Of a DNA stretch of 64,000 nt, positions 13,243-64,000 are shown in pieces. The position numbers and the translations under genes are program-made. How positions within the stretch are numbered: position 1 is the first letter of the stretch; each line of letters begins with the position of its first letter. The DNA is from Ophelia neglecta. Taxonomy: Eukaryota. The notes beneath the pieces were generated by a model. The model made no database searches. It was not told where the DNA came from and worked only from the letters and a program-made list of their open reading frames with translations. The stretch covers positions 12,152,001-12,216,000 of the forward strand of contig OZ260667.1 in the NCBI GenBank assembly GCA_965285935.1. The letters are read 5' to 3'.

Positions 13243-13372
13243 GATCAGCAGACGTCGCGATCGAAAAGTACAGTCGCGTCGCCCGAAAAGTCGTGTGTAC
13301 AGTGTATCATATATAAGCCTCACTGGAACTGTTTACGATCAAAAACAACTAGCACTGGCTCGAATCGTCTGA
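13243..13372 (-). mobile_element. fragment of the same non-autonomous DNA transposon family as 59631-60226, opposite orientation
   Basis: atcagcagacgtcgcgatcgaaaagtacagtcgc...gaactgtttacgatca...gctcgaatcgtctga aligns with the reverse complement of 59720-59830. Confidence 0.65.
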
Positions 13373-13772: not shown

Positions 13773-14045
13773 ACACTGATTGGTGACTCTGGGAGGGGAG
13801 TGGCCCTGGGAGGGGAGGGCTCACTGATTGGTGGCCCTGGGTACGGAGGGGTTAAATATAAGTGGCCCTGGGAAAGGCGGAGACACTGGGAGGGAAGGGT
13901 TTAAAGATTGGTGACTCTGGGAGGCGAGGATTACAGATTGTTGACCATAGGAGAGGAGGAGACACTGATTGGTGACCCTGGAAAGGGCGGGTCACTGATT
14001 GGTGGCCCTGCGAGGGGACAAGACACTGATTGGTGGCCCTGGGAG
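13773..14045. repeat. degenerate ~35-bp repeat (cactgattggtggccctgg core)
   Basis: About 7 degenerate copies directly abutting the 32-bp array. Confidence 0.7.
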
Positions 14046-16674: not shown

Positions 16675-17686
16675 GTAAAAACTGGAACGTGAGAACGTGC
16701 GCCGTAAACACACTAAAACACGAGAACGTGCGCCATAAACAAACTAGAAAACGAGAACGTGCGCCGTCAACACACTAGAACGTGAGAACGTGCGCCGTCA
16801 ACACACTAGAACACGAGAACGTGCGCCGTTAACACACTAGAACGTGAGAACGTGCGCCGTAAACACACTAGAACGCGAGAACGTGCGCCGTAAACACACT
16901 AGAACGCGAGAACGTGCGCCGTAAACACACTAGAACGCGAGAACGTGCGCCGTAAACACACTAGAACGTGAGAACGTGCGCCGTAAACACTTTAGAACGT
17001 GATAACGTGCGCCGTAGACACACTAGAACACGAGAATGTGCGCCGTAAACACACTAGAACGTGAGAACGTGCGCCGTAAACACCCTAGAACGTGAGAATG
17101 TGCGCCGTAAACACTTTAGAACGTGAGAACGTGCGCCGTAAACACACTAGAACGTGGGAAAGTGCGCCGTAAACACACTAGAACACGAGAACGTGCGCCG
17201 TAAACACACTAAAACACGAGAACGTGCGCCGTGAACAAACTAGAACACGAGAACATGCGTCGTAAACACATTAGAACGTAGGAACGTGCGCCGTAAACAC
17301 ACTAGAACACGAGAACGTGCACCGAAAACACACTAAAACACGAGAACGTGCGCCGTGAACAAACTAGAACACGAGAACGTGCGTCGTAAACACACTACAA
17401 CGTGAGAACGTGCGCCGTAAACACACTAGAACGTGAGAACGTGCGCCGTTAACACACAAGAACGCGAGAACGTGCGCCGTAAACACACTAGAACGCGAGA
17501 ACGTGCGCCGTAAACACACTAGAACGTGAGAACGTGCGCCGTAAACACACTAGAACGCGAGAACGTGCGCCGTAAACACACTAGAACGTGAGAACGTGCG
17601 CCGTAAACGCACTAAAACACGAGAACGTGCGCCATAAACAAACTAGAACGCGAGTACGTGTACGTCATTAACACACTAGAACGTGA
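16675..17686. repeat. 31-bp minisatellite, ~32 copies
   Basis: Unit gaacgtgcgccgtaaacacactagaacg(t/c)ga; no unique spacers. Confidence 0.97.
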
Positions 17687-18185
17687 GGCAAAGGTTTAAA
17701 GGAAAAACAACGCATTCTACTTATATAATAATATAAACATCTAATACATTAACTTGTATAGTCAAACTACACTTCCAAAATACATTTAATAGTTACTCTA
17801 GCATGATGTCATTGGTAAGAGAACCCCAGACAAGGAATTGTTACAACAGAAGCTTGGTTTGCAGGTGCCACTGTAGGACTGCTGTGAATTATTGATGTTA
17901 ATGGGTTTGGTTCAGGAGGCCGAATTCGTAATCTGCCATCGACTATCTTATTATTAAATTACCCTGACCCATTTACACTGGGGACCCATGATTGTATCGT
18001 TATTAATATCAGGTCGGACGCTCGTAGAGGCGTTAAACCTCGCTTTTATGTTTGGACTTTCACCTTCCAGCTATGTTCCCTTGCTATACTTATGCACGCC
18101 CTCTTGAAGTCTTTTTGGCTTATGGACTTGGTACCAACCCTTGGATTTTTATCCTTTTTATCCCGCGCCAATCCTGCGAGGATTC

Positions 18186-23940: not shown

Positions 23941-26900
23941 CTAGAACTTGGTTGAGTAGTAATGTAGCTCCTTGCCTGCGTCCGGGGCGTGAATGTCCAC
24001 CATGTAGGACAGCTTCTTGGCACTCACCCAACTGTAAGTGTTGTCAAACCTCAACACATCTAAAATCAATGTTGAAAACCTTAGTTTTAGTTTGCAATAT
24101 ATTGTATTTTGAATGTCGAACGCAACTTGGTAAAAGGAAAACTAATATATTCAGGAATATTAAAGGCAAATTTGCGCATTTAGGGACCGGTCCGGTCCGA
24201 GATTATGATCGGGGGAGGGGAGGGGTAAAGCCATCCGAGGTGGAATGGGGAAGGGGGAGAAAGAATAAACTTCAGCCGAGGGGCTCCGAAAGTTCCGGGA
24301 ACACATTTCGTCCATAAATGAAAAATAAATGACCTCTTTTCTTCTCTTTTGGATTGCCATGAAGTCCTAAATACGGAGGTACCAAATGCATTAACAAGCA
24401 TAGGCGGTCCTTACAAACGAGGTTGTTAGTAAAGAAAGGTCATAGGCGGTCCTTACAAACGAGGTTGTTAGTAAAGTAAGGTCATAGGCGGTCCTTACAA
24501 ACGAGGTTGTTAGTAAAGTAAGGTTGCTTTTCTGGTAATTACTAACTGTGTAGTGCCAGGTATCCGTTAAAGGGGATCCTTTACACAGTGTATGTCGAGA
24601 TTATAGAATATACAATGCATTCCTCCAGCTTGTCGAGCTACTTTACTTTACTAATAGTACCATTAGCTTCCAATGGTACCATTCCTTAATAACGAAAATA
24701 TCATGCAGCAAATTCATAATGTAAGCAGTTCCGCGAATATTTTATGCCATGTAAATTGTCCAATATCCAAGGGGGTACCTATTTTTGCAAGCAAAACACA
24801 GCTTTATTGTCTATTTGAAATATCCTGGGCTTTCTTCTTTCGGGGTTAAATCTCTCAAGCACAACCAACGTTTTTCAGAGGATCATTCCGTGGTTTACTC
24901 ATTCTTGCTTGCCTATTGTATTATAATAATCATCCTATGTTAGCTAGATCTTTTAATAGAAAGGTTGTAAGCCATATCCAGAGAGAAAAATTTGTTTTCA
25001 AACAGTTGAAACCGTTTGTTAATGCGAAGTTAGTAAAAAGAGGGCTGTTTAAAATATTTTTGTCCTGCATGTTTACCATAAAATTTGAAGAAACGAAGAT
25101 TGTTCGAAAATAATCTTGCATCTAGCTTTTTGGCTTGAAATCTCTTGCTAGTAAGTACTGTTATTTAACTTCCATTAGTCCGGTTGTATCTATTTCTCGA
25201 TAATGCTTTCCCTTATTTTTTTCACCGAGGGACGATTCTTAGTTTGATATCTTAATTGATTTCGTTACAAGCAAATGTACAATTAGGAAGCTGGAAATTG
25301 ATGTAGTTTGGCCTGCACCTGGTGGTTCCTCACGAATTCGGACCGATTTATTGAACTATTCTTGATCAATGAGTTTGCTTTGTCAGCCGCGTGTACACTT
25401 CCGTTTTATCACGTGGGTAGGAGAGCGTTTAGACATTTAGACATGTTTAGTTTCACCACAGAAAGGTGGGAGATACAGATACCCTTTAGGCCAGTCGGTT
25501 GGTCACTCGGCTGAGTTTGTTAGCACTGCTGGACGATATTCATGCTGTACTGTGTGCCATTATACAAAAAAATAGCAAACTTTCCGTTTTCCGGGACAAC
25601 CTTAGTGCAATACTTACAGGTGCCAGTCTCGGGACATGTGACCTGTCCGTTCTCGGGGACCATGTGACTGTTGACCCTCTCACTAGGTAAAACGACTTCC
25701 ATCTCGTTCGCCTTCTGACGTTCATCCGCCGTTCGTCGGAAAACTCCGAACCCAATGTCATTTCCTTCTGACTTAAATTGCCAGCTATAATGAAAATGGT
25801 AACAAAATTTACTGTGACATCTTTGTTAATATTTGTATAAGGCAGGTAAATAACTGGCATACCAGTTTGAAAATCCTACTGAGTTGGGAAGTTCATTCCA
25901 TTGAGGCGTGATTTGTACTCTAAAGCCTTGTTCCATCTGAAAACCTTGAATTAAAATATTGCAACTATATTTGGAATATGACTGCCCAATCACAAGTTTT
26001 CTATATTAAAACAATATTATTTAAACTATAGTTTACTTCAAACGTCGTTAATAAGGCACCTACTATAGTAGTATTCCCATAGTTATATTTCACCCTAGTG
26101 GTTAAATACAATGATCAATTGTGTTTCCACTAAACTTAGTTGTCCTGGCCCTATATTAATAAAAATTGGAGTAAAAATTTAGTTTAAATACTATAGTAAG
26201 GACTGTAGTATACTTTAGTATATAGAGAAATAACGGTTAATCGGTTACATTAGTATAGTTAATATCTTTCTCTTTAGTGATGCACTCTGGTAATTTAACG
26301 CTGGTGTTTACTGTGGTTACCCTCTTTAGTCATTCAGCGGTTTATTCACTTAAGTCGGCAACAAAGTTGTACTAGAAGGTACTCGTGCATTCTCGACGGG
26401 GATGGTGATCATGTGTGACCACAACTCATAACATTAAATATATAAAACCGTCAAAGAAGGCATAATGTATATTAGAACGGCTCTAAGTAAAAAATGATAC
26501 ATCATTTCATAATATAGAAATAAGCGCCTCAAAGAGAATGTATACTGTAACAGTTAAAATGTTAACGGGTTTTAAATCGCGAAATGAAACTGCCGCGAAA
26601 TTAGACCTCAGGAATATTTCAGCATCTAATGTGTTGGGATTCAGCAGAAAAATTGCTGACACACAGTATATAATGAGGTAAATGTGCAAATATGTGGATT
26701 TAACCCAGTCGAGAGCGAGGAGATGCCACTGGCACATATATAATGATGAGGGTAATGTGCAGTATGAATTTAACCCAGTCGAGAGAGGGTAGAGAGAATG
26801 TGGATTAGGGGGGAGGGGAGGAGGAGGAGGAGGAAAAAAAAAACAGCATTTCTTTGTGTATTCTTTTTGATACATATCCTCCATTAATGTCATTAATATT

Positions 26901-29900
26901 TTGATCATATAGGTAAGGCCTATTAAATATAATTGTCATCGGAGCAAGAATTAGCGGCTTGGGCTACACTATGTTTGTTTAACCTACCTGGATAGTCTAA
27001 GCCACTCATGAACCCTAGGACCTCAGTGTCAGTGATAAAAACCATCCTTGGATACGCAAAATAGTTAAAAAGATAACAATTGCGATATACACTGACATTT
27101 TGTCCGTTGGCGAAATTAAAATGCTTACACCGGTTGTTCGCATCGCAAGACGCCGGTTTATTACTGAATTATACATGACTACTGAAGTATGGTAATCATA
27201 TTCTTGCAGATTCTAGAATGTAATTATTCTTTTCTTATAAGAGTATAGAGAAATTATTCCTGTACTTTACCAGTGATTTTACCTTTTTCACTATTAAAGG
27301 TTGCTTATAAATGTATGACAAATATCAAGATACCTGTGAATTTGGACCACAGTCAGGGTTCTTAAAATGCTGATCTGATTATAATTAAGGTGCTCTGTTA
27401 AGGCATGTTATCTCACATTGAACGTGTACATTATGGCATAACGTTGGAGCCCTGAATATTGAAAGGTGGTGTTAATATAGAGGTGGTTTTTACTTTACTA
27501 GCTATAGAGAAACGAACGATGCTGGATGATGGTCGTCCGATGACATCAATGCATAATACACAAAGTGGGGAAAGTAAGGGGAGCACGTGTGCTCGGGAAG
27601 GCCAAGAAATGTAGCCGTAGGGGAGGTTTTTGTGAAGGCTGTCCAGCCCCAAGTTCTATCCAATATCTGGAAGCATATGAGGTGTACTTGAGGAGTACCT
27701 ATATACTCCGGGAATACTGTGAACATTTAAGAGCTATTATGATGTTGCTTATTTTTTATGATTTCGTTTAAAGTATCGTGGACACAGTGAGGCCTTCAGG
27801 TTTTATTGGGCACTAAAACCCATTAAATGATCAGCATGTTTGATACTGACTACCGAGAGTTGTCTTACCTGATCATTGAGTTGGGTTCGGTCACCTCGAA
27901 GTCCAGTTGTAGTGAGGATCCTCTTTGTATGGTGACGGTGGTAAAGTTACTCATGTCTACATTGTCCATGAAGTTGTCAATACGATAGCTTTCAGGGATA
28001 GGGCCACCCATACAAATCTAGGAACAGAACTAATTCGTTTTACCCGAATAATCATAATGGATGATTTAAGACCAAGTAACACTCTCCTAACCGTTCGCGA
28101 GTAAAATTCTTATTTCTAACTTCAAACCGCGTTTTGACTTTGAATTATTGCTAGTGTGTAATAAGACACTTAGTTAGGCATCGGAAACATTCAGGACCTT
28201 GGACCTACAGCACGTGTCTCCATCAGGGTCAGTGGCTGTTCCGCCCCAATTCACAGGAAGTTGATCAGCATCTATGTACTGAAGTAAGTGCTGTTTCCAA
28301 TTACCTTAATAAAATTGCGAAAAATCTTCTTAATTAGAAAAGCTGGTTATGTTTTGTTTGCAAATACTGTCACTTAGGGGAATTCAGCTACAATACTTAT
28401 TCAACTATTTCTAAGTTGGGTATCTCTACTATAATATATTATAATAAACAGTATTAAATAACTTTTATTCATTTTATCGAACCTTATAACCTTTAATCAT
28501 TGGATTTAGATATCACAAAATAAATTCTTATAAATCCGGTTAGAGGTGTCAGAAATATTGGTGAACTTACCACCGACCACCTGTATTTTGGAACGAGTGT
28601 ACTCACTAAGGAACGGCTTTGCCAAAGCATAGGCAACCGGGAAGATCTTAGGAGCTATGGGAAGAGTGTTTAAAAGAACAGGAAAATTATAAGGGTAAAG
28701 AGGAAAGTAAGGACAGTAGAGAGAGGGCACACAGGGTAGAGATGTACAGTAGGACATGAATTGGGTCGGGACGCTATGAGAAGTGGATTAGTATTGTGTG
28801 AGTCAAGACCTGAATTAAGACAAGTAATTAAACCTGAATGACGAAATGCATTCCCAATTCCCCCTGAATGACGAAATGCATTCCGAATTCCCCTGATTAA
28901 CAGAAACAAGGAATACTTCTGGAATGCAATAAAGAGAAATTGACGATATAATATGCTGATAAAGAGATAAGTAGGAATGCAGTATTTGGTGAAAGGTGAC
29001 ATAAAAAAAGTGTAAGCTGTACTATACTTTTAACCACCACAATAAACACCCCAGCCTTTACTACTTGCTCTACACTCACTGCCCAATACTTGTATTTTCC
29101 GCCGGGTATCTTCATGCAGAAATGCTTTGGCTAAGTTATATAATACTGGAAATATTTTTGGGGCTGGAAGAAATTTAACAGGCGTATGTGAAAAATAAAT
29201 ATAGAAACATTCATCAATAAAAAAAAAACACGAATGACATACTTTCTCAAAAGCATGAAGGATGAAATATGAAATAAAGTGGCAGCATGAAAAGTTGATA
29301 TACTACTTATCTGAACACATTTTAACAATGATATAGCTATGTGTTTTATATAGACACATGAATTGTAATTAAAAACGTTATTTTCAAAAAAAGAGCTACT
29401 CGAAGCCCTTACTACTATGATCAACATATAGATTGTTATCTGTTTAAATTAGAGCGAATGGCAAAATTAAAACCATTTTAATTATAAATTGCTATCATAC
29501 AAAGTATAGGCAAGCGGTATACCGTTAACGACATAGCAGGTTCTTAACGTCTCGGGGTAGTGAGCTTCAAGTAGTGCTAGTACTTCAGTGAATACTTCAA
29601 CCGCTGGATACAAATTTAAAAATAAAGGAAGAAGGTTTAGGCTTTCGTTAAAACAGCTTAAATCGCCTTTTATGCCCCCTAACTTAACATGTCGCGTATT
29701 AAAATTAAGTAATACTGCTCGCATCACGGCAAATTTGATCAATAAAGCATGTCCGTATATAAATCATCGGCAGTATGGAAAAAGGTTTCTATGCCTAAAA
29801 TGAAGCAAATGAAGAAAAATGTTGACAGATATCAGACCTGGTTTCCAAAGGTGTTTCATGCCTATTCCTTCCATGTCGAATATCATAACACACTGGTCAA

Positions 29901-32900
29901 TTCTACGGCCATTCTACAATCAAATATCATAACACACTGGTCTATTCTAAGGCCATTTTACAATTAAATATCATTACACACTGGTCTATCTTAAGGCCAT
30001 TCTATTTATATATTGTTGGCCTCTTAAAGAATAAGCACTATTTCAAGTGAAACTCGTTTTAAATTGTATGTCGGACTTCTTTTTTAATATTCTGGCAGAA
30101 ATCAGCAGTATATTTAAGGTTTCAAAAAAGACAAAATATGTAATGCTTTTAAGGCATGCTACTCTTACTGAAGGTATGGAGAAGCAAAGTACCTTCTTAG
30201 ATAATTCAGGAAATATATGCCGGAAGAGATGTTCCACCCAGTATGTTTTGTATTTGACAATTTCCTTCTTCGTTGTCGAAAACATCATTCCTGAAGAGAC
30301 AGGAGTGAATGGCTGTTATTGGACATGCTTAGTGCTCCACGTTTGTTTTTACTGGACATCATTATTATAATTAGGGGTGGTATATAATACTAACATTTGT
30401 GGGTTGGGAGTCGCTGGTATCGCTGGGCAAAAGTTGTGGGTTCGCGTCCCAGTCAGGGCACTGACTATATATATATTATTGTTACTGTTATTGTTATTGA
30501 AAATTCTAAGGTATTTGTTGAGTGGGCTGGGATGTGAACCCACAGCCCTTGCGGTAGAACTACCTAGCCCAGAGACTCTAGCCATTGTGCTGTAATGTTT
30601 TAATTCTTATAGATAGCTGTCACCCGTCTCTGAAGTATGACTGATATAGATAGATACTGTATGTCTTGATTGGTTGTATCAAGCGTACAACTCTTTGTTC
30701 TAATGTTCAACTCTTAAGTGATGTTGATATCTCTTTAACTCTATATTCAATCAATCATAACCATATTGTAAAGCTCAACTCTGAAGGGATATGAACCGCA
30801 TAAAAACTGTAAATTCAATAGATGATAACGATCGTGTCGATCATACAACTTAATTTACGACCATTTAATTCCAAATCGAACTTTCATAAGCCTCGTATTG
30901 TATCTGATGAATTGACGGAATTCACACTCCTGTCTCTATTGATAAGGATCAGTTCGATAGATGGAATCGAATGTGTTTGTGCTTTTGATAATAATCGTGT
31001 CGATCAATTGTATTGAAATTATTATGGAACTTGTAGTAAGTTAACAGAATATGCAAGTCCGAATTTCCTGATACTATTCTGTATATTGTGCAATCCCGCA
31101 TTTATGAGTTATAACGGGGCATGATATCGTACAATGCTTACACCTATATGTACGTATCAAGCATATATACCTTATATATGATGACATTGTCCTTACTTCC
31201 CTTTTTAATCATGGGTGCCTTTAGTAGGTCGTTGACAGTCGTCTTGCCACAATCAGCTGTACATGTTTTTCAGATAGGGACAAAAGGAATACTGTTTTAG
31301 TATTTTATGGGTATCAGACTGACCTTTGAGGTCGACAGTGCCCAATGTGTCTAACCAGATAGGGAATCCCTCCTTGTCGACCCCGTGGTACCCTCCAGGG
31401 TAATACTTGACCAGCACCTCAGGGAGGGGCCATTCTAGGATCCTATCAACTCCCATTTGTTTCCTCCACAATGCGTCCTGAAGATACAGTAATTATAATA
31501 AAAAAAGGAATTGCTAAACAAGAATATTATTTATCAAGAGTTGTCCATTAAAGCGTTCCGATATCACCGGGCACAGCCGCAAGCTCACATACACCTATCC
31601 CCAGCTGCTAAACTTTAAAATAAACTTGAAATGCAAATAATAATATTAAAGTATAAATTTTATATTTGCTAAGGGAAGTAGTTAACGGTTTTCCCAGATA
31701 GGAGTCAGAACACAAAACTGATGTCAGTGGTCATCGTGGGACAAAACGACATACATGTAGGCCCAAAGCCAGTCTATAGCGGTATAAGTTCTCAGAATGT
31801 ATTGACTACAGGTTTAATTGTATCAATAAACACAAGACCAATGTGGGGTTAAAGAATTGTTCAACATGAACACTTTAACAGCTTACATCATGAACAATTT
31901 AAAAACTGTTTCCTTCTTCATAGCATTGTTATAGCCACCCAATCAAATACATCTTCCTTATTTTTGGGGACTGGTGTAGGGAGGCCTGCTGCTGGTGGAA
32001 CCTGTTGATTGCTGGCCTATTTAATGGCCTGACTATTCCTGATTTATATTAATGATTGTGCTCGACTGCCGGGCATCCACAGCCGTTTTTTATATATCAG
32101 AGGATGCAGCATTAAAAAGAACGGTATGTTATTTGAATATTCATTTAGATAGTTAGTTATTTGGCTAGGACTGCTTCGACTTCACGACACGACTTTACGA
32201 AAATGTTATCATTTCGGACATAAGAAAGTTGCGCGTTATTAAAATTACAATATAGTGTTGCGTCAGGACAAACTGTCGAGTGAGGTATTATTGGCGAGCA
32301 TGCGGTGGTTTTATCTGTTACCATTGATCATCAACATTAACATTCGTATCAGCCTTGTTAAGCTATGTAGCCACCATTAGATGATTGTACCAATTAATCC
32401 AATTAGCTCACATTCTGAAGGTTTAATTGTTAATTGTTCATTTTGAATCAATTGTATTGTGAACTGGTCCTTTCATGACAGTTACTTAGAGTGACACATT
32501 GTCCCATGAGTATGAGATTGGAAGCTCACTACAACCCCGAGATGGTCAGCCAGGTTGAAGCAGTCGTTATCAGCTAATGCTATTCGCAAAAGACAGTGCG
32601 AGATGACGGATTATCTAGGTGATATCAAAGGTGCTCATTGAGATAACAGGGACATGCATGAACTTGTGAATGATTCGTTCCCTGTACCAATTCACTTGAC
32701 AGATATGGTTTGAACTATGAGTTATAGGAGATTTATATTTAGGGCCTCACGCATTTAAATTAAGAATAACAGTTAACATGCATGACAGTTTTGCGTCGTC
32801 ATTTCTCAAAGAGATAAATATATGACGTTATTTACTATTGTGCAGTACATGACTGAGAGCAGACGAGCTTATAATGTTGCACTGATTCTTAAAATGAAGA

Positions 32901-35900
32901 AGAAACAATGATGCAATCAGGTTAATTAACTTTAATTAAGTTGCTCAACATTCTGGGGATAGCTTATATTATTATATATTTCATAGGAGACACGGGCAAA
33001 GATTTGCTGAAGCTTAGCCACCTGTCATCTGTTATAAAGCCATGTACCCCGACTTATCCCTTATTTTGAAACAGCATGCACACTACCGTTCACCAATTAG
33101 GGCTATGTTCTCTAGGGAAAATACGGTAATCTCCCAAAAGGTGACCGGTATAGTGTGTCTATGCTCACCGACGGGCAATCAGTCGATAATTATATCATGT
33201 ACACCTGCCAATACAGTACTTACCTAGGGGGGGGGGGGGGTCATGGTTGGGCAGTGGTGTGAGAATGAGGCATAAAACCCGGCCCCAGTTAGAAGGGAAC
33301 TAAAACAAATGAGGGAGAGGGGAGCGGATGAGACGGGGTGCGGATGGAAAAGAAGGACGAATTTGGTAGAGAGGGAAGATATGGTAGGCTTAGAATATTA
33401 TAAAGACTAAGTGATGGGAGTTGGGGTAGGATTACTTGCGGGCATTTGCGGTACTGTGGCTGGCAGGGTTGCTCATAGTAGCAAAGGGTCGTGTCAAGAG
33501 GAAGGGGCGGGGGGGGGGGGGGGGTAGGTAGCTTTGGAGTAGACTGAGGGAAGGACACCACGAAGGAGGCAGTCGGCAGTTAGAATGGTAGCTACAATTA
33601 AGAGAGAAGCTTATTTTCTTCTATTAAAGCGTATATTTGGTGTAATATAAAACGCGGCTTCGGGAATATGGCAATTGGAGCCTATACCCTCGGGTCTCAT
33701 AGCTCCCAATAGTCCCCTGAATGGCAGGTATTGTTTTCTTATCGCTCGATTGCTTGACGACCCTGTGGGCACATCAAATCTCCTCCCATTAGGTACTCCT
33801 GCAATTCTTTGAACCTAACGGCGACACAACACTCATTTCCAGCCCAAGTCCCATATAAAATGCCCTACAGACAAACCTAAGACTGAAATTCGTCTCTCAA
33901 AGTAGCATGAATTTCTTTAGTTTAGCATGGTGTAAGTAACGTAAAGCAGTACTACTTACTTCTCGTAACATTTTCTCTGATTTCTTTAAATCCCATGATC
34001 GAGCTGTAAAAAGTAAAAATATAAAGATTCCCACATCCATCATCTTAAAACAAATCAAAAGGGCTACATCCAGTCTCGCTCAATGGATTTCTTTTATGAT
34101 ATATTTATACTAAATTACAAAAATGAGATATTGGCTTTCTGAAAAACTCTTCGGTAAAATTGTTGCCAACGTGACCATTATTTCATTTGGTTAGTATTTT
34201 CATCAATATTTTCTGTCGTCAAAAACATTTATCAAATTAGCGTCTAACACTGCGCGATGTAAAAATCCTAGGGAGGTCATTGACATCGGCTCGTTTTATA
34301 ATTAGACGTTTGTGTAGATGGGTCCTCTGAAATAGGAGAGCATTCAGGCCTCGCGGGATAAGATTTTACTCGCTTCACAACGTCGGGAGCTCAAGAGCAA
34401 ACGTCGATTTTTAAACGTATTTGAATGTATAACGTCGGACAACGCGCTTAAAAAATCCGACCGCGTCCCAGCTGCGTTCGCGTCGAGTATTACCCTGTGA
34501 TATGCACTTAGATATCCCGGGGTGATATAGGCCTAGAGATGTGTGGGACTCTTCAAGATGATGTGTGCCTGGTCTGAGCGATATGAATGTACTTCATATA
34601 TATCTTTATCAGTCGATTCGCATTCGCATTCGCATTATTGTAGTATCATAAGGTGTCTCTATATGTCAGGCCTGTCTGTCTGTTCAATGTGTGTAAGCCC
34701 TGAGCTCAAGTAGATAAGATAATCTAGAAAAAAACCCAAATATGAAACACTAGCCATACAAGATGATCTTGTTGAACTTTGCATGAAGCCAGTAGCTAAG
34801 TCAAAACTAAATCAGTTTTGACGAGCTTATTCAATTCTACATTATTATTAATCATAAAAGGTTTTGTAAATTAAGATTAATTTCCTAGTTGAGTTGCTCA
34901 TACTCATCAGTCAAGGTTCTTTGTCCTGTTAGCGCTAGTTATAAAGGTTAGATGGATAACTTATTTCATCAATGGGCTTACACAAGGATATTATTTTTCA
35001 ATACTTCGGCCTTTACATGTACTCAACAGGCTGACCGGTACTCTGACCATTATTTGATAATTTTGTTGATTTCGTATTGGGATTTATTACAGGCTATGGG
35101 AGTTTTGGGGAGTTTTTGTGGTTAACTGTGGCTAATTGTGAATCATTGTTAGGGTTACATTATATATTATTGTGATTTATATTAAGTTATGTTGAGATAT
35201 TGTTGGTTATTGTGAATTATTGAAGGTTATCGTGATTTATCGTGAGTTATCGTGAATTATTGTGAGTTGTCGTAGTTTAGTGTGAGTTATCGTGGTTAAT
35301 CGTCAGTTTTAGTGCGCTATTGTGAATTAATATGAGTAATCGTGAATTATTGTGAAATATTGTCACCTATTTTATGCTATCGTACATTATTGCGGCTATT
35401 TTAAATTTATTTTACATTATTGTGGTTATTCAATGTTATTGTACATTATTGCAGTTATTTAATGCTAACGTACCTTATTGTACAGATATTGCTTTAATGT
35501 GATTTATAGTTGTATATTGTGCGTAAATTATCACAAGTTATAGTGGTTTTTTGATTCTTTTGTGATTAAATGTGAGTTAATGCAGGTTATTATAGGTTAT
35601 TGTTAGTTGTCGTGGTTTACTGTGAGTTGTCGTAGGTTTTAGTAGTTTATCATGGGTTATTGTGAGTTATCGGGGTTTACTGTGTGTTATCGTATGTTAT
35701 CGTAGGTTATCTATGTTATCGTGGGTTTCGTGAGTTATAACGAGGTTTTTTGTTTGTTTTCGCGAATTATTTTATCTAAGTCTATCGCATGTTATTGTAG
35801 TTTATCGTGATATATCGTGGTTTATCGCAGGTTATCGTGGTTTATCCCAGGTAATCGTGATTTATTTTGGGTTATTGTTGGTTATCATGGTTTATCATGG

Positions 35901-37413
35901 GTTTATGGATCTTAGTGTACATTAGAATGAGCTTTTAGTGTAATAATATGGTTACTTATTTCATATTATTTGAGAGAAGAAGAAAAAATTAATTTACTTA
36001 TAGAATAATATAGGACTTTATCATTTGTCATTATTGATTAAAACCATAATGATCCGAGTACCAGTCATTCTTTGACTATGACTTTGTTAGGCGTGGTCGT
36101 TCAAATGAAACTCCTTGCTTCTACAGAAAAGCCAATGCAACATTGTGACAATCGGTACAAAAATATTGTATGTATACCAAATTATCGCTACACAATTAAG
36201 AGAAATTATAACTTACTTCTCTCCATGTAAAAAAACAAATGTCTTATTGGCACAATTAACCTATGACTATTGACCAAGATATGTGGAAAAATGAGAATTT
36301 AAAAACAACAATTTGGGGAAAAACTAATTTTAATTAAATAATCTAAAATTAATTCGCCTGAAATGTATGTCTGCAGATTTATACACATGGAATTATATTG
36401 GCACACTCAACTCGCTGTGTTACAGTGTAAAACCCCCAATCAAATCCCAAGCTCAGCCATTAGCAGACTAAACTTTATGTTATTCCCGAACTAAACCTAA
36501 AGAGGCCAGCCGGAAATATAGCATACTAACCAATAGACACATTTCATATGTTGAAAATAAACCTTGAAGTGAGGTTGCAGTTAAAGAAACGGTGGTCTCC
36601 AAGAGGTTGGCAGGGCCACTTTCTGCAGTGCGTGAGGATTAAACTTTAAATTTTTTTCATGGACGGGTAGAGGACTTCTCAATCAGTCTCAAGGACCGGC
36701 GCGGAGCTTCTTAGCCCCAGTCCCAAAGACGGGCTTAACCCTTGTCTTAACTATGGACTCGAGGACCGGTGCAGGGCTGCTTTTACGCTTCTATAAAAAA
36801 AGTTAGTGAAAATTTAAAGCGCGGTTTATTTTCACATTGTTTCTTGACCCCCCACCCCCACCCACCCACCCACCCAAACTCCCCTACCATCACCGCCTCT
36901 CCCTCCCACCCCCCACCCCCCACCCCTTACACGCACATGCATGCATTAATTATGTACTAATATATGCCTCAAGTCCACCGAGTCAAGTCACCAGGGAAAC
37001 ATGTGTATAATATACCTCTCAGCCATCTGCAGTAATAGTGGTCTATCCACTCAGGAGTAGCAATGTCACTCACGGCCTCCTTAAACTGAAAGAAACAGGT
37101 TCAGCTTATATAGAACAAGACTTAAAGGATATAAATGTAGACCGAATTCTTCAGCTTATTGTAATTTCCGCACTTCTTTCCTATAATTGATAAATCTAGC
37201 CTAGACCATAAATCATGTTTATAAAACATGCCGAGTATCAGGCTATCTGTACCTATGAAGTAGCTGGTTATCTTATACAGGACCCGCTGTATGATTGGAC
37301 ATGAATAGTCCAAATAACAAACATGTTAGTCATTCTATCAATCTATTGAACATTTTACAATTTACCTTGGCGAGAGCTTCTGTCTGTTTTGGGTTGAGGT
37401 TTTCCTCGGACAT
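23941..37413 (-). CDS. SEC14L2: SEC14-like protein 2 family (CRAL-TRIO_N + CRAL-TRIO/Sec14 + GOLD), complete, 12 exons, 398 aa; paralog A
   Basis: Exons, all GT-AG and phase-consistent: 37413-37366 [16 protein letters not shown]; 37085-37016 FKEAV...YCRWLR; 34003-33960 [15 protein letters not shown]; 31477-31324 ...[26 protein letters not shown]; 30290-30193; 29913-29838 ...[15 protein letters not shown]; 29603-29523 ...[13 protein letters not shown]; 28654-28571 [22 protein letters not shown]; 28304-28198 [16 protein letters not shown]; 28017-27869; 25784-25618 [14 protein letters not shown]; 24059-23941 [11 protein letters not shown]...*. Total 1197 nt. The symbol denotes the family, not proven orthology. 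Confidence 0.95.
24399..24524. repeat. 42-bp tandem repeat, 3 copies (SEC14L intron 11)
   Basis: Unit cataggcggtccttacaaacgaggttgttagtaaagtaaggt. Confidence 0.9.
28833..28896. repeat. 30-bp tandem duplication between exons 8a and 8b
   Basis: cctgaatgacgaaatgcattcc(c/g)aattccc occurs twice. Confidence 0.85.
29080..29163 (-). CDS. duplicated alternative exon 8a of SEC14L paralog A (probably mutually exclusive with exon 8b at 28571-28654)
   Basis: tttcttccag|...84 nt...|gtgagt, phase 1-1, encoding (A)[27 protein letters not shown](S); same length and phase as 8b. Confidence 0.85.
29883..30004. repeat. 44-bp repeat (~3 copies) comprising the exon 6 acceptor and exon start, paralog A
   Basis: tcataacacactggtc(a/t)attcta(c/a)ggccatt(c/t)tacaat(c/t)aaata units. 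Confidence 0.85.
30405..30593. mobile_element. two converging tRNA-derived SINE-head relics
   Basis: Plus strand: B-box-like gtgggttcgcgtcccag (~30437-30451). Minus strand: A-box-like agcacaatggctagag and B-box-like gtgggttcacatcccag (30527-30591). No full cloverleaf. Confidence 0.45.
35095..35910. repeat. degenerate ~10-bp satellite (ttat(c/t)gtg(a/g)g)
   Basis: Periodic ttatcgtgag/ttattgtgaa motifs across ~800 bp of SEC14L intron 2. Confidence 0.8.
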
Positions 37414-48613: not shown

Positions 48614-51053
48614 CTAGTCAGCATCAATGTTATGATGAAGAACTGTTGCATAATCACCAAACAACCAGTACCTAGGTAGAGGATGTGGATCAAGCAAATC
48701 ACCTACATTCAGCATACAGAAGATGTGTGTTTGTTTCATTATGGATGCTTGGTAGTGTCTTTCAGATGACACTGTTTCCATTTTTTCACAGAACAAGTAA
48801 GGAGTTCCTGCAACAACATAACAACATCTCACTGAGGCAAACTGCAAACTGAGAATATTCTTGTACAACCACACATTCACCACCATATACAGAGCCATAC
48901 ATATGCAGTGATGATCCTCGCTTAACCTGAGAAATTCCACCTAGAAGTGCTTCCAAGAATGTTCTTTCCTCATCAAGACTTTCCACACTCACCACTTTTA
49001 CACCTGTTAGCTCAAATTTTCCTGCGGAGAGATAATTTTCCATCTCCAGGTGCATGGTTTGCATGTACTGGTGGCGCTGAGCCATTGTCTTGCAAAGATT
49101 CTTACGATTTTTTGTTCGTCTTACAATGTTAATGAAGAAGGAATGTTTTGCTTCAAATCGCATACACCAAGTATGCCTCAATGGGCCATACTTCAATACT
49201 GATTCTTTGTAATGTAGAGAGAAGTGACCTTTTGGTTTTAAATGAATATCAGGAAATTCATTGTGATAGATGGCATGGAATTTCTCAATAAGACCCTCTA
49301 GATATACCACTCCAGCAGGTAAAAATATAGTACTCATGACCATGTCAATCATCTCTTTTAATGCAATTGCGTGCTCCCACTTAGCATCATTTTGTGGAAT
49401 GATATGGCCAAGAAGCAGGGGCAACAGGCGTACAAGACACCACACCTGGGAAGACTTCTGTTTCAGGTTAAAGTGACCATTCACAATGGCAACTTCGGGT
49501 TTGTTACATTTGTCATGAGACATGAACCTGAAGTTTTGAATCAACTCACAAAAATCTTCAAGTGAAAGGATACGAGTTTGACTGTAGTGAAACATAAGGC
49601 ACTGTAGCACATCACTAGCAAGCCCAGATTCAAACATATCATGCATAACATCTGGAGGGAGGCCATTCACTACATGAAAATAACTCAGCTCATTTAGCAC
49701 TGATTTTCCAGTTATACCATAAGCAGTTGCCAAAGTTGGATCCTGCTGGACAAGATCTGCTTGAGCATTGTACTGTTCTACAGTTCGGCGTTCAAATGAT
49801 AAAATGTCACGCATAGTCCTCAAATCATTCTTCTCAATCAAACAAAATCTGCATGACCTCAGTGCAACAAATGACTTTATAAATGACCCTATCATATGTG
49901 ATCCCAGGTTATCAGAGATAGCCACAAGGATAGATCCACGAAAAGTCCTACGACCTCCTGCTAGTTCAACAACAAACCTGTATCCTCAAGGTCCTTCAGG
50001 TCTCTGATAAGGGGAGCAAGGATTGTTTCAAAGCCATACTGCTTTATGTGTTTTGCTTTAGCTAATATGGCTAACTGAATACTATGTACGATGTGACCTG
50101 AGAGAAGGTGAAATGTTACCAATTTGGAAGTAAAAACCACCATATTTGTAACGAGGTGCATAACACCCAGCTTGTATTACACCTGTAAACTCATCCAAGT
50201 AGAGCAGTATTTGTAACAATGTAGGATCACTACTCCAAAATGCATTATTTTTGAATATCTGGCCATCACAAAGATCTCGCAAATTGTTATCCCTACTCTG
50301 ATGAGGATTCAAGATTTCACCAAGAACATCTTCCTTCTTAACAAGCTGTTTCAGTGTTTCTAAAATTGGGACGTATTGCATGCTGTCACCACTTGTTCCA
50401 CCTAAGAAATATTCTTGTGGCCCTACATAAGTTAAATTTCTTTCAATATATCTATTCAGATAGCGGGTGTCACAAAACTTCAGCATATGGTCAAGTGCTA
50501 GTCTATTTTCTGTTTGCACAACACAGAGAACTTTTTCGACAGTTTCCCTTTGAACACTTTCATCTTGTAATACTGTCTTAAAAATTCTTTGAGCATTAAT
50601 GTCTTTGCTTTCAGTGAGTGCTGCAGCAAACTCCAAAAATGATGAGCAAGTTTTGTATGGAATTTTTTGTGATTCTCTTGGAGCGAGCACAGATTTTGCC
50701 AATACTCTACCAAGGTCTTGTTCAGCCATCTGTTCAGAAACAACAATGCTGTCATCATCAATTTCCAATGATGGTTCATAGTCAATTATCATGTGTTCAT
50801 CTTCATCAATATTATCATCCAATAGTTCATTAGATTGAAGTTCCTCAAATGAATTGTCAAACAAGTGTTTCTGTCAAAGATGTTTTCTTAAGCCATGCAC
50901 TGACCTAAACTGTTTTCCACAATGCTTCCCATAACATGTAATGGAAAAATTTGGCTCATTTTGGTGTCAAATGCCATAATGTGTAAGCAGTTCTTTACGT
51001 TGTCTAGTCTGATAAGCACAAAATGAACAAACAAAAACAGTCAACTCATCCAT
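48614..51053 (-). pseudogene. EnSpm/CACTA-type DDE transposase with two N-terminal C2H2 zinc fingers; 2 in-frame stops and 3 frameshifts
   Basis: ATG at 51053: MDELTVFVCSFC...H..I*H; C...CGKQF.....RKHL*QKH. Motifs LYLDEF, SDNLGSH, CRFC, PPDVMHD, KPKGHF..HY...YGPL..WCMRFEAKH and C-terminal LLDPHPL..Y. TGA at 50969 and 50876; frameshifts near 50090, 49980 and 48850. Confidence 0.9.
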
Positions 51054-58277: not shown

Positions 58278-61200
58278 CTAGAACTTGGTTGAGTAGTACT
58301 GTAACTCCTTGCCTGCGTCTGGTGCGAGGATCTCCACCATGTAGGACAGCTTCTTGGCGTTCACCCAACTGTATGTGTTGTCAAACCTCAACACATCTAA
58401 AATAATATTACAGTATTACATAAAATTAGTGTAAAATCACAGTAGCTAATGTTTATCAAATCAGAATCTGAAGGCTTCCGCTTCTAACTTCCATTAAACA
58501 TTGAAATTGTGAGACACATTTAAGTAAAACTCAAGCCCCTTCCCGGGAATCAATATGGGATCGCTTTCTTGTAAATGCGTGTCAATCTCGGGTAACGTGG
58601 GCTTTAGGTTCTTAACATAGGCCCCTTCATACACAGGGCCTTTTAAAAATGAAAATCTCCCATATAGAGTCACTATATACTAAAATGACGTCCAAGGGGA
58701 TGAGGGTTATCTATTGGGGGAAGGAGGGGGGGGGGGGTATTTTTATATAGTATATAGTGACTCTATATGGGAGACTTTCAGTTTTAAAAGACCCTGTGAG
58801 TACATACTTATATCCTTCTCAGCTTAGAGGTTATCAGGGCTTTACAACTTCCTTGAAAGTACTTTTCTTAGGCTGGGGCCTATGAATTATGGAATGCGCG
58901 CATATATTTGTCCCTAGAACTGTCCGTTCCCCCGGACCACGTAGTGGCAATAATACCTACATGTGCCAATCTCAGGACATGTGACCTGTCCGCTCTCGGG
59001 GACCATGTGACTATTGACCCTCTCACTAGGTAAAACGACTTCCATCTCGGCCGCCTTCTGACGCTCATCCGCCGTGCGCCGAAAAACACCGAACCCAACG
59101 TCATTTCCTTCTGACTTAAACTGCCAGCTATAATGAAAGGAGCCAATGTTTACTCTGATATTTTGGTAAACAGTTGTAAGAAGTATCGGTAGACGTCGTA
59201 AAAAGGGAAGACCTGGGTGGTTGGATGAGTTGTGGAATAAATGTCCGCTATTCTCAAACTATTTTAGATGGAATATCTCTTGAGTATTTTTTCCTTTCTT
59301 TATTATCAACAACTTTGTAAAGATCGCCTTTAGTCCTATATATACCTGATCATTGAGTTGGGTTCGGTCACCTCGAAGTCCAGTTGTAGTGAGGATCCTC
59401 GTTGTATGGTGACGGTGGTAAAGTTACTCATGTCTACATTGTCCATGAAGTTGTCAATACGATAGCTTTCAGGGATAGGGCCACCCATACAAATCTAGGA
59501 ACAGAACTGATCGGTAACCTTAACGTTCGATAGAAAAACGGGAATATATATATTAATAAAATAAGTCCCCTCTGACCGTATTTAGTTATTCTATTCACAT
59601 GTGACACCCGTTACAACACCACGATAAGCAGGTGTCTGGACTTTTCGAGCGAGCGCCAGTTCGAGCGGTGGCTATACTGGTCGTTTCGAGCGAGGACATC
59701 GGACGTTTCGAGAGGGGCCATCAGACGTTTCGAGCGGGGCCTGTTCTAGTCGGTTATGATAGTAAACAGTTTCAGATACAACTTTTCGAGCGGTGCGACT
59801 GCACTTTTCGATCCCGACGTCGGCTGATACATGGCGGACATGACTACTAGGCATGGAACGACCTCTGGTGGCATATCCAAGAGGAGCTCCCAGTGATACG
59901 GACTGATTTGGAAATGAAAAAAGCGTAAAAATGCGCCAAACTTGTGCAATTTCGAAGAGAATAATCGTGGAAAAGGTAGCAAGTCACCGTATTTAAAAAA
60001 AAAAAAAAAATAAACGAGATTCAACCGTTCTAAACATCGTCGGTGAACTGCCTTTAGTTATCGCCAACCAGGGGGCTACAAGAGTCGAACTGAATATAAA
60101 GAGATTAGCAAACAGTAATACAGTAATATAGCTACATTATCAAGATTTATTAGCTTAACTCCTATAAAACGCCCCGCTCGAAAAGTTCCCCGCTCGAAAT
60201 GTCCCCGCACGAAACGACCCGGGACCGATAAACAACAATGATGAATGGTTCTTCACTGAAAAAGCTTATTTTGAAAACGTTCGCATCGACTATTAACAGG
60301 TGGCAGCAAAAGCTCGTCGCAACTTATTTTGTATAGACTGTCGACGAGGACTTGTCTAATAAGGGGCAGTTAACTGTTCCAACACTACAGTAAATATTTC
60401 CATCTAACAGCTGAAGTGGTAATAATTTGTTATAAAAAAATCTAGGAATATACCAGTTAAATCATGTGAAATAAGTTATTTGGCTATTGATAACTCTGCT
60501 TTGTCCTTAGGAGACATGATAATCCCATTTCCACTTACTGTTTCCAGGTTCCTTCACCAAACACCGCTCCATTACATTAATAGACCAACCATACGTTGGC
60601 TTCTAGAATGTAACGTCTTTATATTTATCTAATTTACTATTTAGTAACTAGATATATTAGTTAACATTACATGTGGCAATGTGTATGTATGATTATCCGC
60701 ACGTTATATTTGATATCTAGTTGCGAGTTGGATTGTTGTTCTGCACTATGCGCATGTATGTATGCTTGTATGAAATCTGTCCACTCGCTCTGTGTACTTT
60801 GGGAAATAGATGTATCGTTTCTTTAGCCAATAAACTCATAAGATAACTTTTTTTTTGACGTTTCAAATTTTTTTGATTTAATTTGATACACATTTTAATT
60901 TGTACTTATAAAGCTCAATTAGCACTAAAGAGTAACACAATAGCCTTTAGTACTTTAGGGATCCAAGTTAATAAGGCTTTTCGGTTATTTTCATCAAACA
61001 ACTGTCTCCTAACTTTGATTTGGAGAAATAGTCCAGCCAGATTATTATCTTCTCCATGCAACTTGGATCCCACCCAACATGTTCCAGTATTTCTAAAATA
61101 AATGGTCTATTTGGGCATAATATGTCGATAGGTACACACACCCCCTCGCCCCAACCTCATTTTCCAACATTTGTTAAGGACATTAAGGTGCGAGGTGTCA

Positions 61201-63078
61201 AACCCTGGATTGTACTGTGGCCTACTCGTTCACTGTTTTCTTTGAATTCCTTGCTATGATTTTTGTCGGCCACTAGAGGTGGCATAAATATCATCAGCTG
61301 AAATGTTGACACTTTTGGACACGAGTATTGTTTTAACCAAGAGGAAATGTATGACTCATTTGTGAAGCTATGCTGATAGTTTTAATATTACCATTCGGTT
61401 GGGAAACAGGAGCAAGTAAGTACCTTAGACCGACAGCATGTGTCACCATCAGGGTCAGTGGCCGTGCCGCCCCAATTCACAGGAAGTTGGTCGGCATCTA
61501 TATACTGGAGTAGGTGCTCTTTCCAATTGCCTTAATAATTGAAAAACAATCGTTAGTAAGAAACTTTGGTTATGTTTTGTGGGTAAATATATTATTAGAT
61601 GAATCCAAATAATAAACATAAGCTTGAAATAATGTTCCTTGACAGTATTTATTTTATTTTCGTAGTTCTGCCATCAAGTTTCAAGAAAAGATTTTTTTTT
61701 TTATTCCATGTCATTTGGAAAAGCTATAATATTTACTTTAAACGAAATTCTTAAAATTTCGGTTAGGATTGCGAGCAGTATTGGCGAACTTACCTCCTAC
61801 AACCTGTATTTTAGTGCGCGTGTATTCACTAAGGAACGGCTTTGCTAAAGCATAGGCAATCGGGAAGATCTTGGGCGCTATGGGAAGAGAGAGTTAGAGA
61901 GTTTGAAAGATAAGAAAGAGAATCAGGATAAGGATGAAGTTAGGACAATGAACATCGGACATATAGGATACACTGGCTGTTCCACATAAAGACGTACATT
62001 GGCTGACTAGGTAAATTCTGGTACGATAACTAGTGTATGGTCATTTAGTAATACGTCGGTAATAGTAGTAATAAACCAAAAGACCTTAATGTCATGCAAA
62101 TTCAACTGAATAAATTATAACAATTATGAACTAATGGGTGGAATGGTAGGTTTTTAGGATTAAGAGACCATTGCGCTTAAAAAACTATTGATTGCTTTTC
62201 AAAGGACTAAAAACGGCTTCAAAAATTATCCAAGCCTTCACTACTCCCTCTACATTCACTGCCCAATACTTGTATTTTCCGCCGGGTATCTACCTTCATG
62301 CAAAAATACATTAGTTTCTATAATACTGGGAAAAATTTTGGCTGGAAAAAGGGCAAAATATACATGGAAAAGTATTCAATGTTAAAATCAATGATGTCAA
62401 AATTTTACAAATGCGAGAAAGATGAAAAAGATGACAACATAGGGACATAGACGGCCAATCATTATACATCAGTAGGCACGTATACACCAATGTAATAAAT
62501 AATTATGATAATAGCAATCTCCTTAATATGAGTACTGTCTCTAGAAAATATTAACAATGATCAAAGAACAACTTATGTGGAAAGCTGGCAAATTGGCAAA
62601 ATAAATTTTACCATTCTAAACTTATAAACAAACGTAAGACCATGAAATTAAGTTTAATTTGCTCGATATCTCAAAAGTGTACCATTAATAACAAAGCAAA
62701 TCCTCAATGTCTCGGGGTAGTGAGCTTCAAGCACAGCAAGTACCTCGGTCAATACTTCAACCGCTGGATGAAAATTAAAAAACAAACATGAGTAGTCTAA
62801 TATTTAAATTAAAACAACTAAAATACACTTCCAGTCAATTAATAGTTCATGCATTGATGTGAAATATTTTATACATGCGGTAGCATTGCAAAGTTTATAT
62901 GATTAACATTAAGTATTAAGAGGGAATGTATTGAAGCTTGTACGGATGAAAAGGTACAACTATAATGCAATAAATCAAAAACTATATTGAAGGAAAGCAG
63001 ACCTGGTTTCCAAAGGTGTTTCATGCCTATTCCTTCCATGTCGAATATCATAACACACTGGTCAATTCTACGGCCATT
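58278..63078 (-). CDS. SEC14L2: SEC14-like protein 2 family, tandem paralog B; exons 6-12 (5' exons beyond window)
   Basis: Exons 63078-63003, 62763-62683, 61877-61794, 61530-61424, 59494-59346, 59127-58961 and 58396-58278 (stop TAG). Lengths and phases are identical to paralog A (76, 81, 84, 107, 149, 167, 119 nt) with no disablements. Confidence 0.93.
58630..58802. mobile_element. MITE with ~50-bp TIRs, TA-flanked (intron 11 of paralog B)
   Basis: cacagggccttttaaaaatgaaaatctcccatatagagtcactatatacta ... tagtatatagtgactctatatgggagactttcagttttaaaagaccctgtg. Confidence 0.85.
59631..60226. mobile_element. non-autonomous DNA transposon with GG..CC ends, subterminal ttcgagcg repeats and an 8-bp TSD (Merlin/MULE-like)
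   Basis: Left arm ggtgtctggacttttcgagcg..., right arm ...cgctcgaaaagt...cccgggacc; flanks gataagca (59623-59630) and gataaaca (60227-60234). Absent from the 180-bp equivalent intron of paralog A. Confidence 0.75.
62260..62341 (-). pseudogene. disrupted exon 8a of SEC14L paralog B
   Basis: Homologous to 29080-29163 with AG/GT retained, but 82 nt long, with TAG in the homologous frame (PKFFPVL*) and indels. Confidence 0.8.
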
Positions 63079-63477
63079 CTACAATCAAATATCATAACAC
63101 ACTGGTCAACTCTACGGCCATTCTACAATCAAATATCATAACACACTGCTCAACTCTACGGCCATTCTACAATCAAATATCATAACACACTGGTCAACTC
63201 TACGGCCATTCTACAATCAAATATCATAACACACTGGTCAACTCTACGGCCATTCTACAATCAAATATCATAACACACTGGTCAACTCTACGGCCATTCT
63301 ACAATCAAATATCATAACACACTGGTCAACTCTACGGCCATTCTACAATCAAATATCATAACACACTGGTCAACTCTACGACCATTCTACAATCAAATAT
63401 TATAACACACTGGTCTATTCTAAGGCCATTTTACAATTAAATATCATAACACACTGGTCAACTCTACGGCCATTCTA
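63048..63477. repeat. 44-bp tandem array (~10 copies) of the exon 6 acceptor and exon start, paralog B
   Basis: Unit tcataacacactggtcaactctacggccattctacaatcaaata. Confidence 0.95.
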
Positions 63478-63703
63478 AACTCAATTCAAAATATACATGA
63501 ACCATAACCAGATATATACAGAAAATATAGAATAAACGTTGTGGTCAGGATGTCAGCACTAGGAAAGCCCTCTGGTAAACATTAAATTACAATAAACGAA
63601 AAGGTAAAATGGTAACCGATCATACCACCTATAAATTTTTACTGTTTTAAATAAAGAAACAACAATCACAAAAAATATTAAATTAATAAATTGCATGAAT
63701 TAC

Positions 63704-63734
<31 letters not shown>

Positions 63735-64000
63735 TAGCCATCACGATTTTGTCGTGCCATCACGTACGGCCAGAAAGGAAAATATAAGGAAAAGCACTCA
63801 ATTTAAATATATAGGTAGGAGAGCTGCAGCGCGTCCAGAGATGGAAAATATATAATAAATTTATTGAAATTAGATCATCTGTGATAAAAGAAGGCAGAGA
63901 AACAACAAGAAAAGAAGAGTCACCCGCCGTGAAGGGAATCCCAGTGTCCGCACAACCCCGCTGAGGCAAGGCAGCCGACAAGAGGTGCAACAACAGACAT

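Follow-up and report, generated by a model that had tools for sequence, protein, structure and literature searches.

Minisatellites whose first unit spans an exon-intron boundary, with the splice site reiterated 5 to 25 times, are described in the accessible portion of PMC1557585, according to which F7, LAMIN B2 and PDGF use the authentic donor only, and CBS intron 13 and 6-16 also use the next two. At CBS 844ins68, where splicing has two identical 3' splice sites to choose from, strongly prefers the distal one and yields normal mRNA (PMC2630376 and PMC1802585, both in extract), gene conversion has been discussed as well, to go by the title of PMC2630376. The unit of the ABCA7 intron 18 VNTR is 25 bp long and begins with a splice site, and use of the site in the next unit gives a frameshift and an NMD substrate; repeat length tracked exon skipping and expression there, and an effect of copy number on NMD was sought and, in the available part of the paper, not found (PMC5954066). 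Intron gain by tandem duplication (the Rogers model, with ATP2A1 as an example) needs, in the excerpted text of PMC3265369, an AG-GT motif that supplies both donor and acceptor. As for competition between 3' splice sites, the partial text of PMC9225289 gives an overall preference for the upstream site, reduced under exon definition (the class with long introns on both sides), and human EST data in which the class with a long upstream and a short downstream intron mimics exon definition. A literature search turned up no precedent for a multi-copy minisatellite on the acceptor side, which is weak evidence of absence, and a closer one could be among the earlier cases of repeats affecting splicing that a supplementary figure of PMC10078293 sums up.

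The locus discussed here lies in a stretch of 64,000 nucleotides (the window) and has the features of such a splice-site-spanning minisatellite: its units run head to tail, are of minisatellite size and reiterate a splice site within the intron. It is the acceptor side rather than the donor side that is repeated, and the terminal unit would span the boundary, to judge from the intact frame and the fit to homologs.

A lipid-transfer gene pair and its 44-bp array

Comparison of the window with itself reveals two paralogs in the same orientation, about 33 kb apart (Table 1). Exon 4 of paralog A matches the solved structures of SEC14-like proteins 3, 2 and 4 (E 2.5e-12 to 5.3e-07), and by sequence similarity the host gene is a SEC14L2/3-like lipid-transfer gene of the SEC14L2/3/4 family, whose members are CRAL-TRIO plus GOLD lipid-transfer proteins. 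A protein search with exon 4 returned 404 proteins at E <= 0.001, the best 150 of which were listed; a word-index homolog search with the same exon yielded 12 candidates, none significant, no Pfam match was obtained for any of 12 ORFs or exons, single exons of the host gene among them, and Rfam gave no match. Intron sizes, repeats and protein similarity suggest that the DNA comes from an invertebrate animal. The introns of paralog A are GT-AG and the array-bearing exon is the sixth. With five full-length homologs its 398-residue model shares 31-41% identity; these are the ones counted out of eight longer homologs aligned (one lacked the exon 6 region and two vertebrate-looking ones were left out), and in all five a model with the 76-nt exon 6 outscores one that is 21 nt shorter. 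Exon 5 of paralog B was not found in 63475-64000, which places the 5' half of this gene outside the window and means that B is known here from exons 6-12; exons 6, 7 and 8b-12 have an open frame and canonical splice sites, and exon 8a carries several indels.

Table 1. Window coordinates of the gene pair, the two arrays and the tracts of near-identity
Feature	Position	Strand	Remarks
Paralog A, SEC14L2/3-like gene, 12 exons and a duplicate exon 8	23941..37413	-	intact 398-codon frame
Paralog B, exons 6-12, open frame using exon 8b	58278..63078	-	exons 1-5 beyond window end
Exon 6 of paralog A, 76 nt	29838..29913	-	
Exon 6 of paralog B, 76 nt	63003..63078	-	acceptor AG 63080-63079, donor GT 63002
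In-frame CAG 21 nt inside exon 6	63057..63060	-	deletes 7 residues; weak, score -3.0
Unrepeated 3' half of exon 6, 38 nt	63003..63040	-	purine 0.66, 4 GAA words
44-bp minisatellite of paralog B, 10 units	63044..63484	-	TRF, motif count
Exon-start copies of paralog B, units 1-10	63474, 63430, 63386, 63342, 63298, 63254, 63210, 63166, 63122, 63078	-	
Unit 1 of paralog B with its own T-rich intron end	63444..63500	-	score 2.7
Variant unit 2 of paralog B, AG to AA	63400..63443	-	43/44 nt as in paralog A unit 2
Decoy acceptors of paralog B, units 3-9	63122..63399	-	13-nt acceptor identical
Array of paralog A, 3 units	29879..30004	-	exon-start copies 30001, 29957, 29913
Putative gene-conversion tract, exon 6 and flanks	62998..63107	-	0/110 mismatches vs A 29833-29942
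Putative second conversion tract, exon 10 and flanks	59343..59508	-	1/166 mismatches vs A 27866-28031

Exon 8 is duplicated in both genes (minus strand; A 29080-29163 and 28571-28654, B 62260-62341 and 61794-61877). The copies 8a and 8b of paralog A are 84 nt each, with 36 base differences and similar peptides; 8a of paralog B is 82 nt long and its indels break the frame. Since one copy of exon 8 outscores both copies together in five of five homologs, 8a and 8b look like mutually exclusive exons in A. The gating helix of the Sec14 pocket presumably falls within this segment, so the 8a and 8b proteins might handle lipids differently. Mutually exclusive exons in this context were not found in a limited literature search, and the duplication is possibly more interesting than the splice-acceptor array itself.

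Read on the minus strand, the array unit joins 13 nt of acceptor ending in AG to the first 31 nt of exon 6. The initial annotation had described a 44-bp unit repeated about ten times in B and about three times in A, and TRF bears this out with 10.0 copies in B (95% matches, no indels) and 2.9 copies, or three units, in A (90% matches), a difference between paralogs as read on one haplotype. All 12 matches of a 17-nt junction motif in the window fall inside the two arrays; 0.28 matches would be expected in the window, and none of 100 shuffles reaches 12. The acceptor variant with AG changed to AA, which the annotation had reported as common to both arrays, is indeed unit 2 of each (exon-start positions 63430 in B and 29957 in A; 63416-63442 and 29943-29969 on the plus strand). 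The annotation also spoke of identical decoy acceptors, and this is correct for B, whose upstream units comprise seven identical 13-nt decoys (units 3-9), one dead unit (unit 2) and one that differs (unit 1), but not for A, where neither upstream unit has the identical acceptor: that of unit 1 is purine-rich and differs at 8 of 13 positions, and unit 2 has lost its AG. None of the eight G-type units that lie upstream in B matches the real exon at position +13. Units 4-7 of B are identical (176 bp), 5 of its 10 units are distinct variants in a fixed order, and units 3-9 contain two private variants.

Two smaller observations concern the units themselves. Unit 8 of B has a single C-to-G change at 63149 that creates an additional AG and disrupts the word most like a branch point (consensus yUnAy), which lies 28 nt ahead of the closest decoy acceptor, that of unit 9; this may be chance. 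Within the exon-derived part of the decoy units (29927-30001, 63092-63474), 6 of 9 distinct variants fall on third codon positions (P 0.04), a bias that is not counted as evidence, the test being post hoc.

How unusual it is for a repeat to lie across an acceptor depends on how many repeats there are. Arrays of period >= 20, after merging and with both 44-bp arrays included, number 26 and cover 6311 bp, or 9.9% of the window; with random placement, selection being ignored, and the A and B arrays counted as one event, the expected number of arrays whose founding unit covers an acceptor is 0.32 for 20 acceptors, and for 40 splice sites it is 0.65. The 44-bp repeat itself is beyond chance, but its position across an acceptor is not far from chance in this repeat-rich genome. 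Other large arrays in the window are 32 bp x 38 at 14044-15269 and 31 bp x 33 at 16673-17687. Mobile sequences may be present too. Two minus-strand ORFs (48786-49985, 399 codons, and 50082-50873, 263 codons) have no Pfam match; eukaryotic hypothetical proteins resemble the larger at 0.92-0.96, and some of their clusters carry Transposase_21 (12% of members) or Plavaka (14%), so that a disrupted DNA transposon is probable here. Positions 13244-13294 and 59778-59828 match over 51 bp in inverted orientation (86%); the second site is in intron 9 of B, beside short 22-bp and 16-bp repeats (59682-60214), and the match is likely a small mobile element.

Probable exchange between the paralogs

Between the two genes, exons 7, 8b, 9, 11 and 12 differ at 65 of 558 bases (dS 0.56, dN/dS 0.07), with 16 of 81 differing in exon 7, and introns 6 and 7 align at 68-69%. 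Against this background there is a run of 110 identical nucleotides that covers exon 6 together with 29 nt upstream and 5 nt downstream, and variant unit 2 has one mismatch in 44. At exon-level divergence the chance of such agreement is 1.3e-6 for the 110 nt, 0.03 for unit 2 and 2e-7 for exon 10 alone (1/149), and at intron-level divergence it is 1.7e-6 for unit 2. With dS at about 0.56 and yet 0/110 and 1/44 mismatches, the array would have moved between the paralogs by recent gene conversion, and I strongly infer that the unit 2 variant is shared through recent transfer, either by gene conversion or by unequal exchange. An ancestral origin of the shared unit was considered and rejected, for 43/44 identity fits neither dS 0.56 nor introns at about 68%. 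The recent conversion behind the shared variant had been overlooked in the initial annotation. The exon 10 tract suggests that gene conversion between the paralogs is recurrent; exons 11 and 12 are better conserved and have not been homogenised.

These patterns also bear on the trustworthiness of the assembly. Units 4-7, being identical over 176 bp, could have been miscounted in a short-read assembly, and the identity of exon 6 between the paralogs could in principle stem from cross-mapped reads. However, a collapsed or polished product would not readily account for distinct variants in a fixed order in half of the units of B, for a second locus at which the 44-bp unit has variants of its own, for a window without N in which other arrays reach 1.0-1.2 kb, or for homogenised tracts that are not all perfect (1/44, 1/166) and that pass over the better-conserved exons 11 and 12. 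It is very unlikely that the array or its copy number is an artefact of assembly or polishing.

The direction of the exchange is less clear, and transfer from A to B is mildly favoured by the sequences because two units of A share two derived changes that occur once in B; against this direction, the array junction resembles the intron end at unit 1 of B more than that of A. Upstream of unit 1 no homology was detected between the intron 5 ends of A and B (z -0.5, where three other introns give 4.0-12.3). Unit 1 of A might be the original exon start of that gene, displaced by converted sequence, and unit 1 of B is likely the original acceptor of B. How the first duplication arose is a separate matter. 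The annotation had derived the unit from microhomology between intron and exon, which is plausible and at the same time partly circular, as the junction of a tandem duplication holds exon-derived bases by construction; an independent intron end is available only from unit 1 of B, where a comparable AT-rich motif stands 6 nt farther away from the AG.

One more stretch of near-identity deserves mention in its own right. From the 3' part of exon 8a into its donor flank, A and B are nearly identical (29069-29110 versus 62249-62290, with an exact run of 36 nt) although 8a of B is broken; conversion may have left a third short tract here, or an element that serves the choice of exon 8 may have been conserved.

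Choice among the reiterated acceptors

To follow the reading frame, every AG in 63003-63520 was joined to a phase-0 exon 5. There are 42 AG positions, all 38 that lie upstream of the last acceptor lead to a stop within 25 codons, and the frame is open only from the AG before 63078 or the CAG before 63057. The claim of the initial annotation that only the last acceptor gives an intact protein thus stands for the full-length frame, but it missed the internal CAG, whose product is seven codons shorter; as the main acceptor this site was rejected, since it scores lower in five of five homologs. Units 1, 4 and 7 add a length that is a multiple of three and nevertheless meet a stop in the next unit. 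Used as acceptors, decoy units 3-9 would give exons of 120-384 nt with the stop in the following unit, those of units 6-9 (120-252 nt) being within the normal size range, and unit 1 would need an internal exon of 472 nt. With unit 9 the protein would end after 162 residues, with six exon junctions downstream. A stop upstream of several exon junctions makes a standard NMD substrate. As in AS-NMD, the decoy sites would bring a stop well upstream of the last exon junction; these unproductive sites have not been kept in paralog A, where both are degraded. As both are dead or degraded, A must use the last acceptor to make an intact protein.

The sites were scored with a crude matrix built from the 17 other acceptors of both genes, six of them paralog pairs, with one pair left out at a time. 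On this scale the exon 6 acceptor reaches 1.7, a value exceeded by 16 of the 17 others (median 5.7) and equalled or exceeded by 31% of 603 ordinary intronic AGs in gene A. Because the score is so low, the decoys are copies of a weak type of site that these introns constantly skip. One branch of the annotation had the spliceosome skip many identical decoys, and this agrees with the anatomy of the locus and with the human F7 and CBS precedents; the skipping is less remarkable than was said, given the weakness of the acceptor. The unit 1 site of B scores 2.7 and is preceded by a 77-nt stretch free of AG. At the other end of exon 6, the donor 76 nt downstream scores 8.7, where 18 real donors span 4.3-11.4. 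The four GAA words in the unrepeated half of exon 6 compare with none in a decoy unit; purine-rich words of the GAA type act as splicing enhancers, and this half is a candidate exonic enhancer. G runs are absent from the array unit.

Intron lengths differ between the two genes. In B intron 5 exceeds 922 nt and intron 6 has 239 nt, and in A intron 5 up to the decoys would measure 191-235 nt, a length at which the upstream sites would be expected to win. It is suggestive that B falls into the class with a long upstream and a short downstream intron, the one mimicking exon definition, and that A, with both decoys disabled, is short, a fit made on two loci with human thresholds (250 nt). Concealment of the decoys by RNA structure was considered and rejected, as the folding of the array region does not surpass that of shuffles (z -1.55; 5/100 as good), and so was selective opening of the real acceptor, the 14 nt before it being 0.32 unpaired and those before the decoys 0.24-0.70.

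Now considering the frame, the weak site and the tracts of near-identity together, it is probable that the last acceptor is chosen by exon definition, that the other units leave with the intron and that a minor leak is cleared by NMD. The array would then be a minisatellite that is tolerated and lies across a splice acceptor by accident. A slippage duplication, probably aided by the short AT-rich likeness of intron end and exon, may have begun the repeat; array units and exon 6 would recently have been swapped between the paralogs by gene conversion, with expansion in B to follow. As the acceptor is weak, exon 6 would be recognised across the exon, by way of its donor 76 nt downstream and the purine-rich half that only the last unit possesses, and the last unit would win while the other nine units leave with intron 5. 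Any minor leak, most likely to the adjacent unit, would give an early stop and be removed by NMD, and the copy number of the array would then matter little. Several points stand against this account: competing 3' splice sites generally prefer the upstream one (PMC9225289, in the part available), unit 1 outscores the real acceptor (2.7 > 1.7) and follows the AG-free stretch, the unit has none of the G runs by which CBS splicing is steered to the distal copy, the exons of units 6-9 would be of ordinary size, and both the precedents and the 250-nt threshold are human.

Some of the same points would suit a rheostat in which each added unit diverts B transcripts to a decoy and to NMD and in this way tunes the output of B, as an accidental or a selected effect. 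The 13-nt acceptor is the same in seven decoys, in near-identical upstream context, each of them would bring a premature stop followed by six exon junctions, upstream 3' sites compete well in general (PMC9225289, partial text), and repeat length has been linked to splicing at thousands of human loci (PMC10078293) and to exon skipping at ABCA7 (PMC5954066), in what is available of these two papers. However, the branch of the initial annotation that made array length an NMD rheostat finds no support here, the length of the ABCA7 repeat, the one analogue in which this was put to the test, was without effect on NMD in the same partial text, and A has lost its decoys rather than kept them. Furthermore, arrays of the F7 type use only the nearest one to three sites (PMC1557585, in extract), and added distant units should therefore not matter. 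A rheostat is unlikely on balance. The more ambitious proposal, an acceptor minisatellite passed on by conversion whose copy number sets the share of B transcripts lost to NMD, and so a transferable and heritable dosage dial, is harder still to credit, and its further element, that purging took place in A with its short intron and amplification in B with its long one, is likewise improbable.

Another possibility is that paralog B was recently crippled, with unit 1 or another upstream acceptor dominating, an mRNA with an early stop as the result and A covering the function. Unit 1 does retain its T-rich intron end, with a higher score than the real acceptor, a redundant paralog lies next door, and the array looks young (two private variants in units 3-9), for which reason the undecayed exons of B do not by themselves speak against crippling. 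On the other side, exons 6, 7 and 8b-12 have remained open with canonical sites while 8a gathered several indels, the use of unit 1 requires the 472-nt internal exon, and the intron architecture favours exon definition. I would give crippling little credence, and choice of the last acceptor across exon 6 seems the better reading of B.

There is also the question of whether the array is removed as an intron of its own, a gain of the Rogers type in which an upstream acceptor is used, a GT in the unit serves as donor and the frame is restored. Introns can arise by tandem duplication (PMC3265369, in the text available), and routes in two pieces that keep the frame exist on paper. Yet the exact protein is not recovered by any two-piece route, the GTs in the unit score 3.9 at best and otherwise from 2.1 to -9.1, where all 18 real donors are higher, and the unit is without the AG-GT junction motif of the Rogers type. 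On the route test and the internal GT scores this explanation was rejected, and it must be called extremely unlikely.

Comparison with known splice-site repeats

If the exon-definition account is true, the locus is functionally ordinary and a handy natural test case, not a new regulatory device. Eight upstream AG-bearing unit acceptors precede the real one, which is the reverse of the F7 donor case, and since the decoys lie upstream of the real acceptor, the locus pits scanning against exon definition for 3' splice sites, with the A/B pair providing a short-intron and a long-intron context. It would also present a splice-site array moving between paralogs by conversion. If, on the other hand, length did tune expression through NMD, the array would be a simple copy-number dial on paralog dosage. 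Two small twists set it apart from the known cases, the acceptor side with many copies and the probable transfer between paralogs. Within its gene family the locus differs from other SEC14L2/3/4 genes in having a duplicated exon 8.

The Rogers model has in common with this locus a tandem duplication inside a gene that is neutralised by splicing; unlike there, the repeat here only lengthens an existing intron. The ABCA7 VNTR is on the donor side, and the array described here is on the acceptor side. CBS 844ins68 shares the duplicated intron/exon junction and the resulting identical 3' splice sites, but it has two copies, and G runs promote the distal choice in the portions of the reports available, whereas ten copies and no G runs are found here. 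The 37-bp array of human F7 intron 7, and those of CBS intron 13, 6-16, LAMIN B2 and PDGF, likewise have a unit that spans an exon-intron boundary and a repeated site. In that group, however, it is the donor that is repeated, downstream of the authentic one, and here it is the acceptor, upstream, so that a scan from 5' to 3' meets the decoys first; site use and length polymorphism have been measured in the F7 group, and the present array is known from its sequence alone. By analogy with these systems, the array most likely works as the F7 and CBS cases do.
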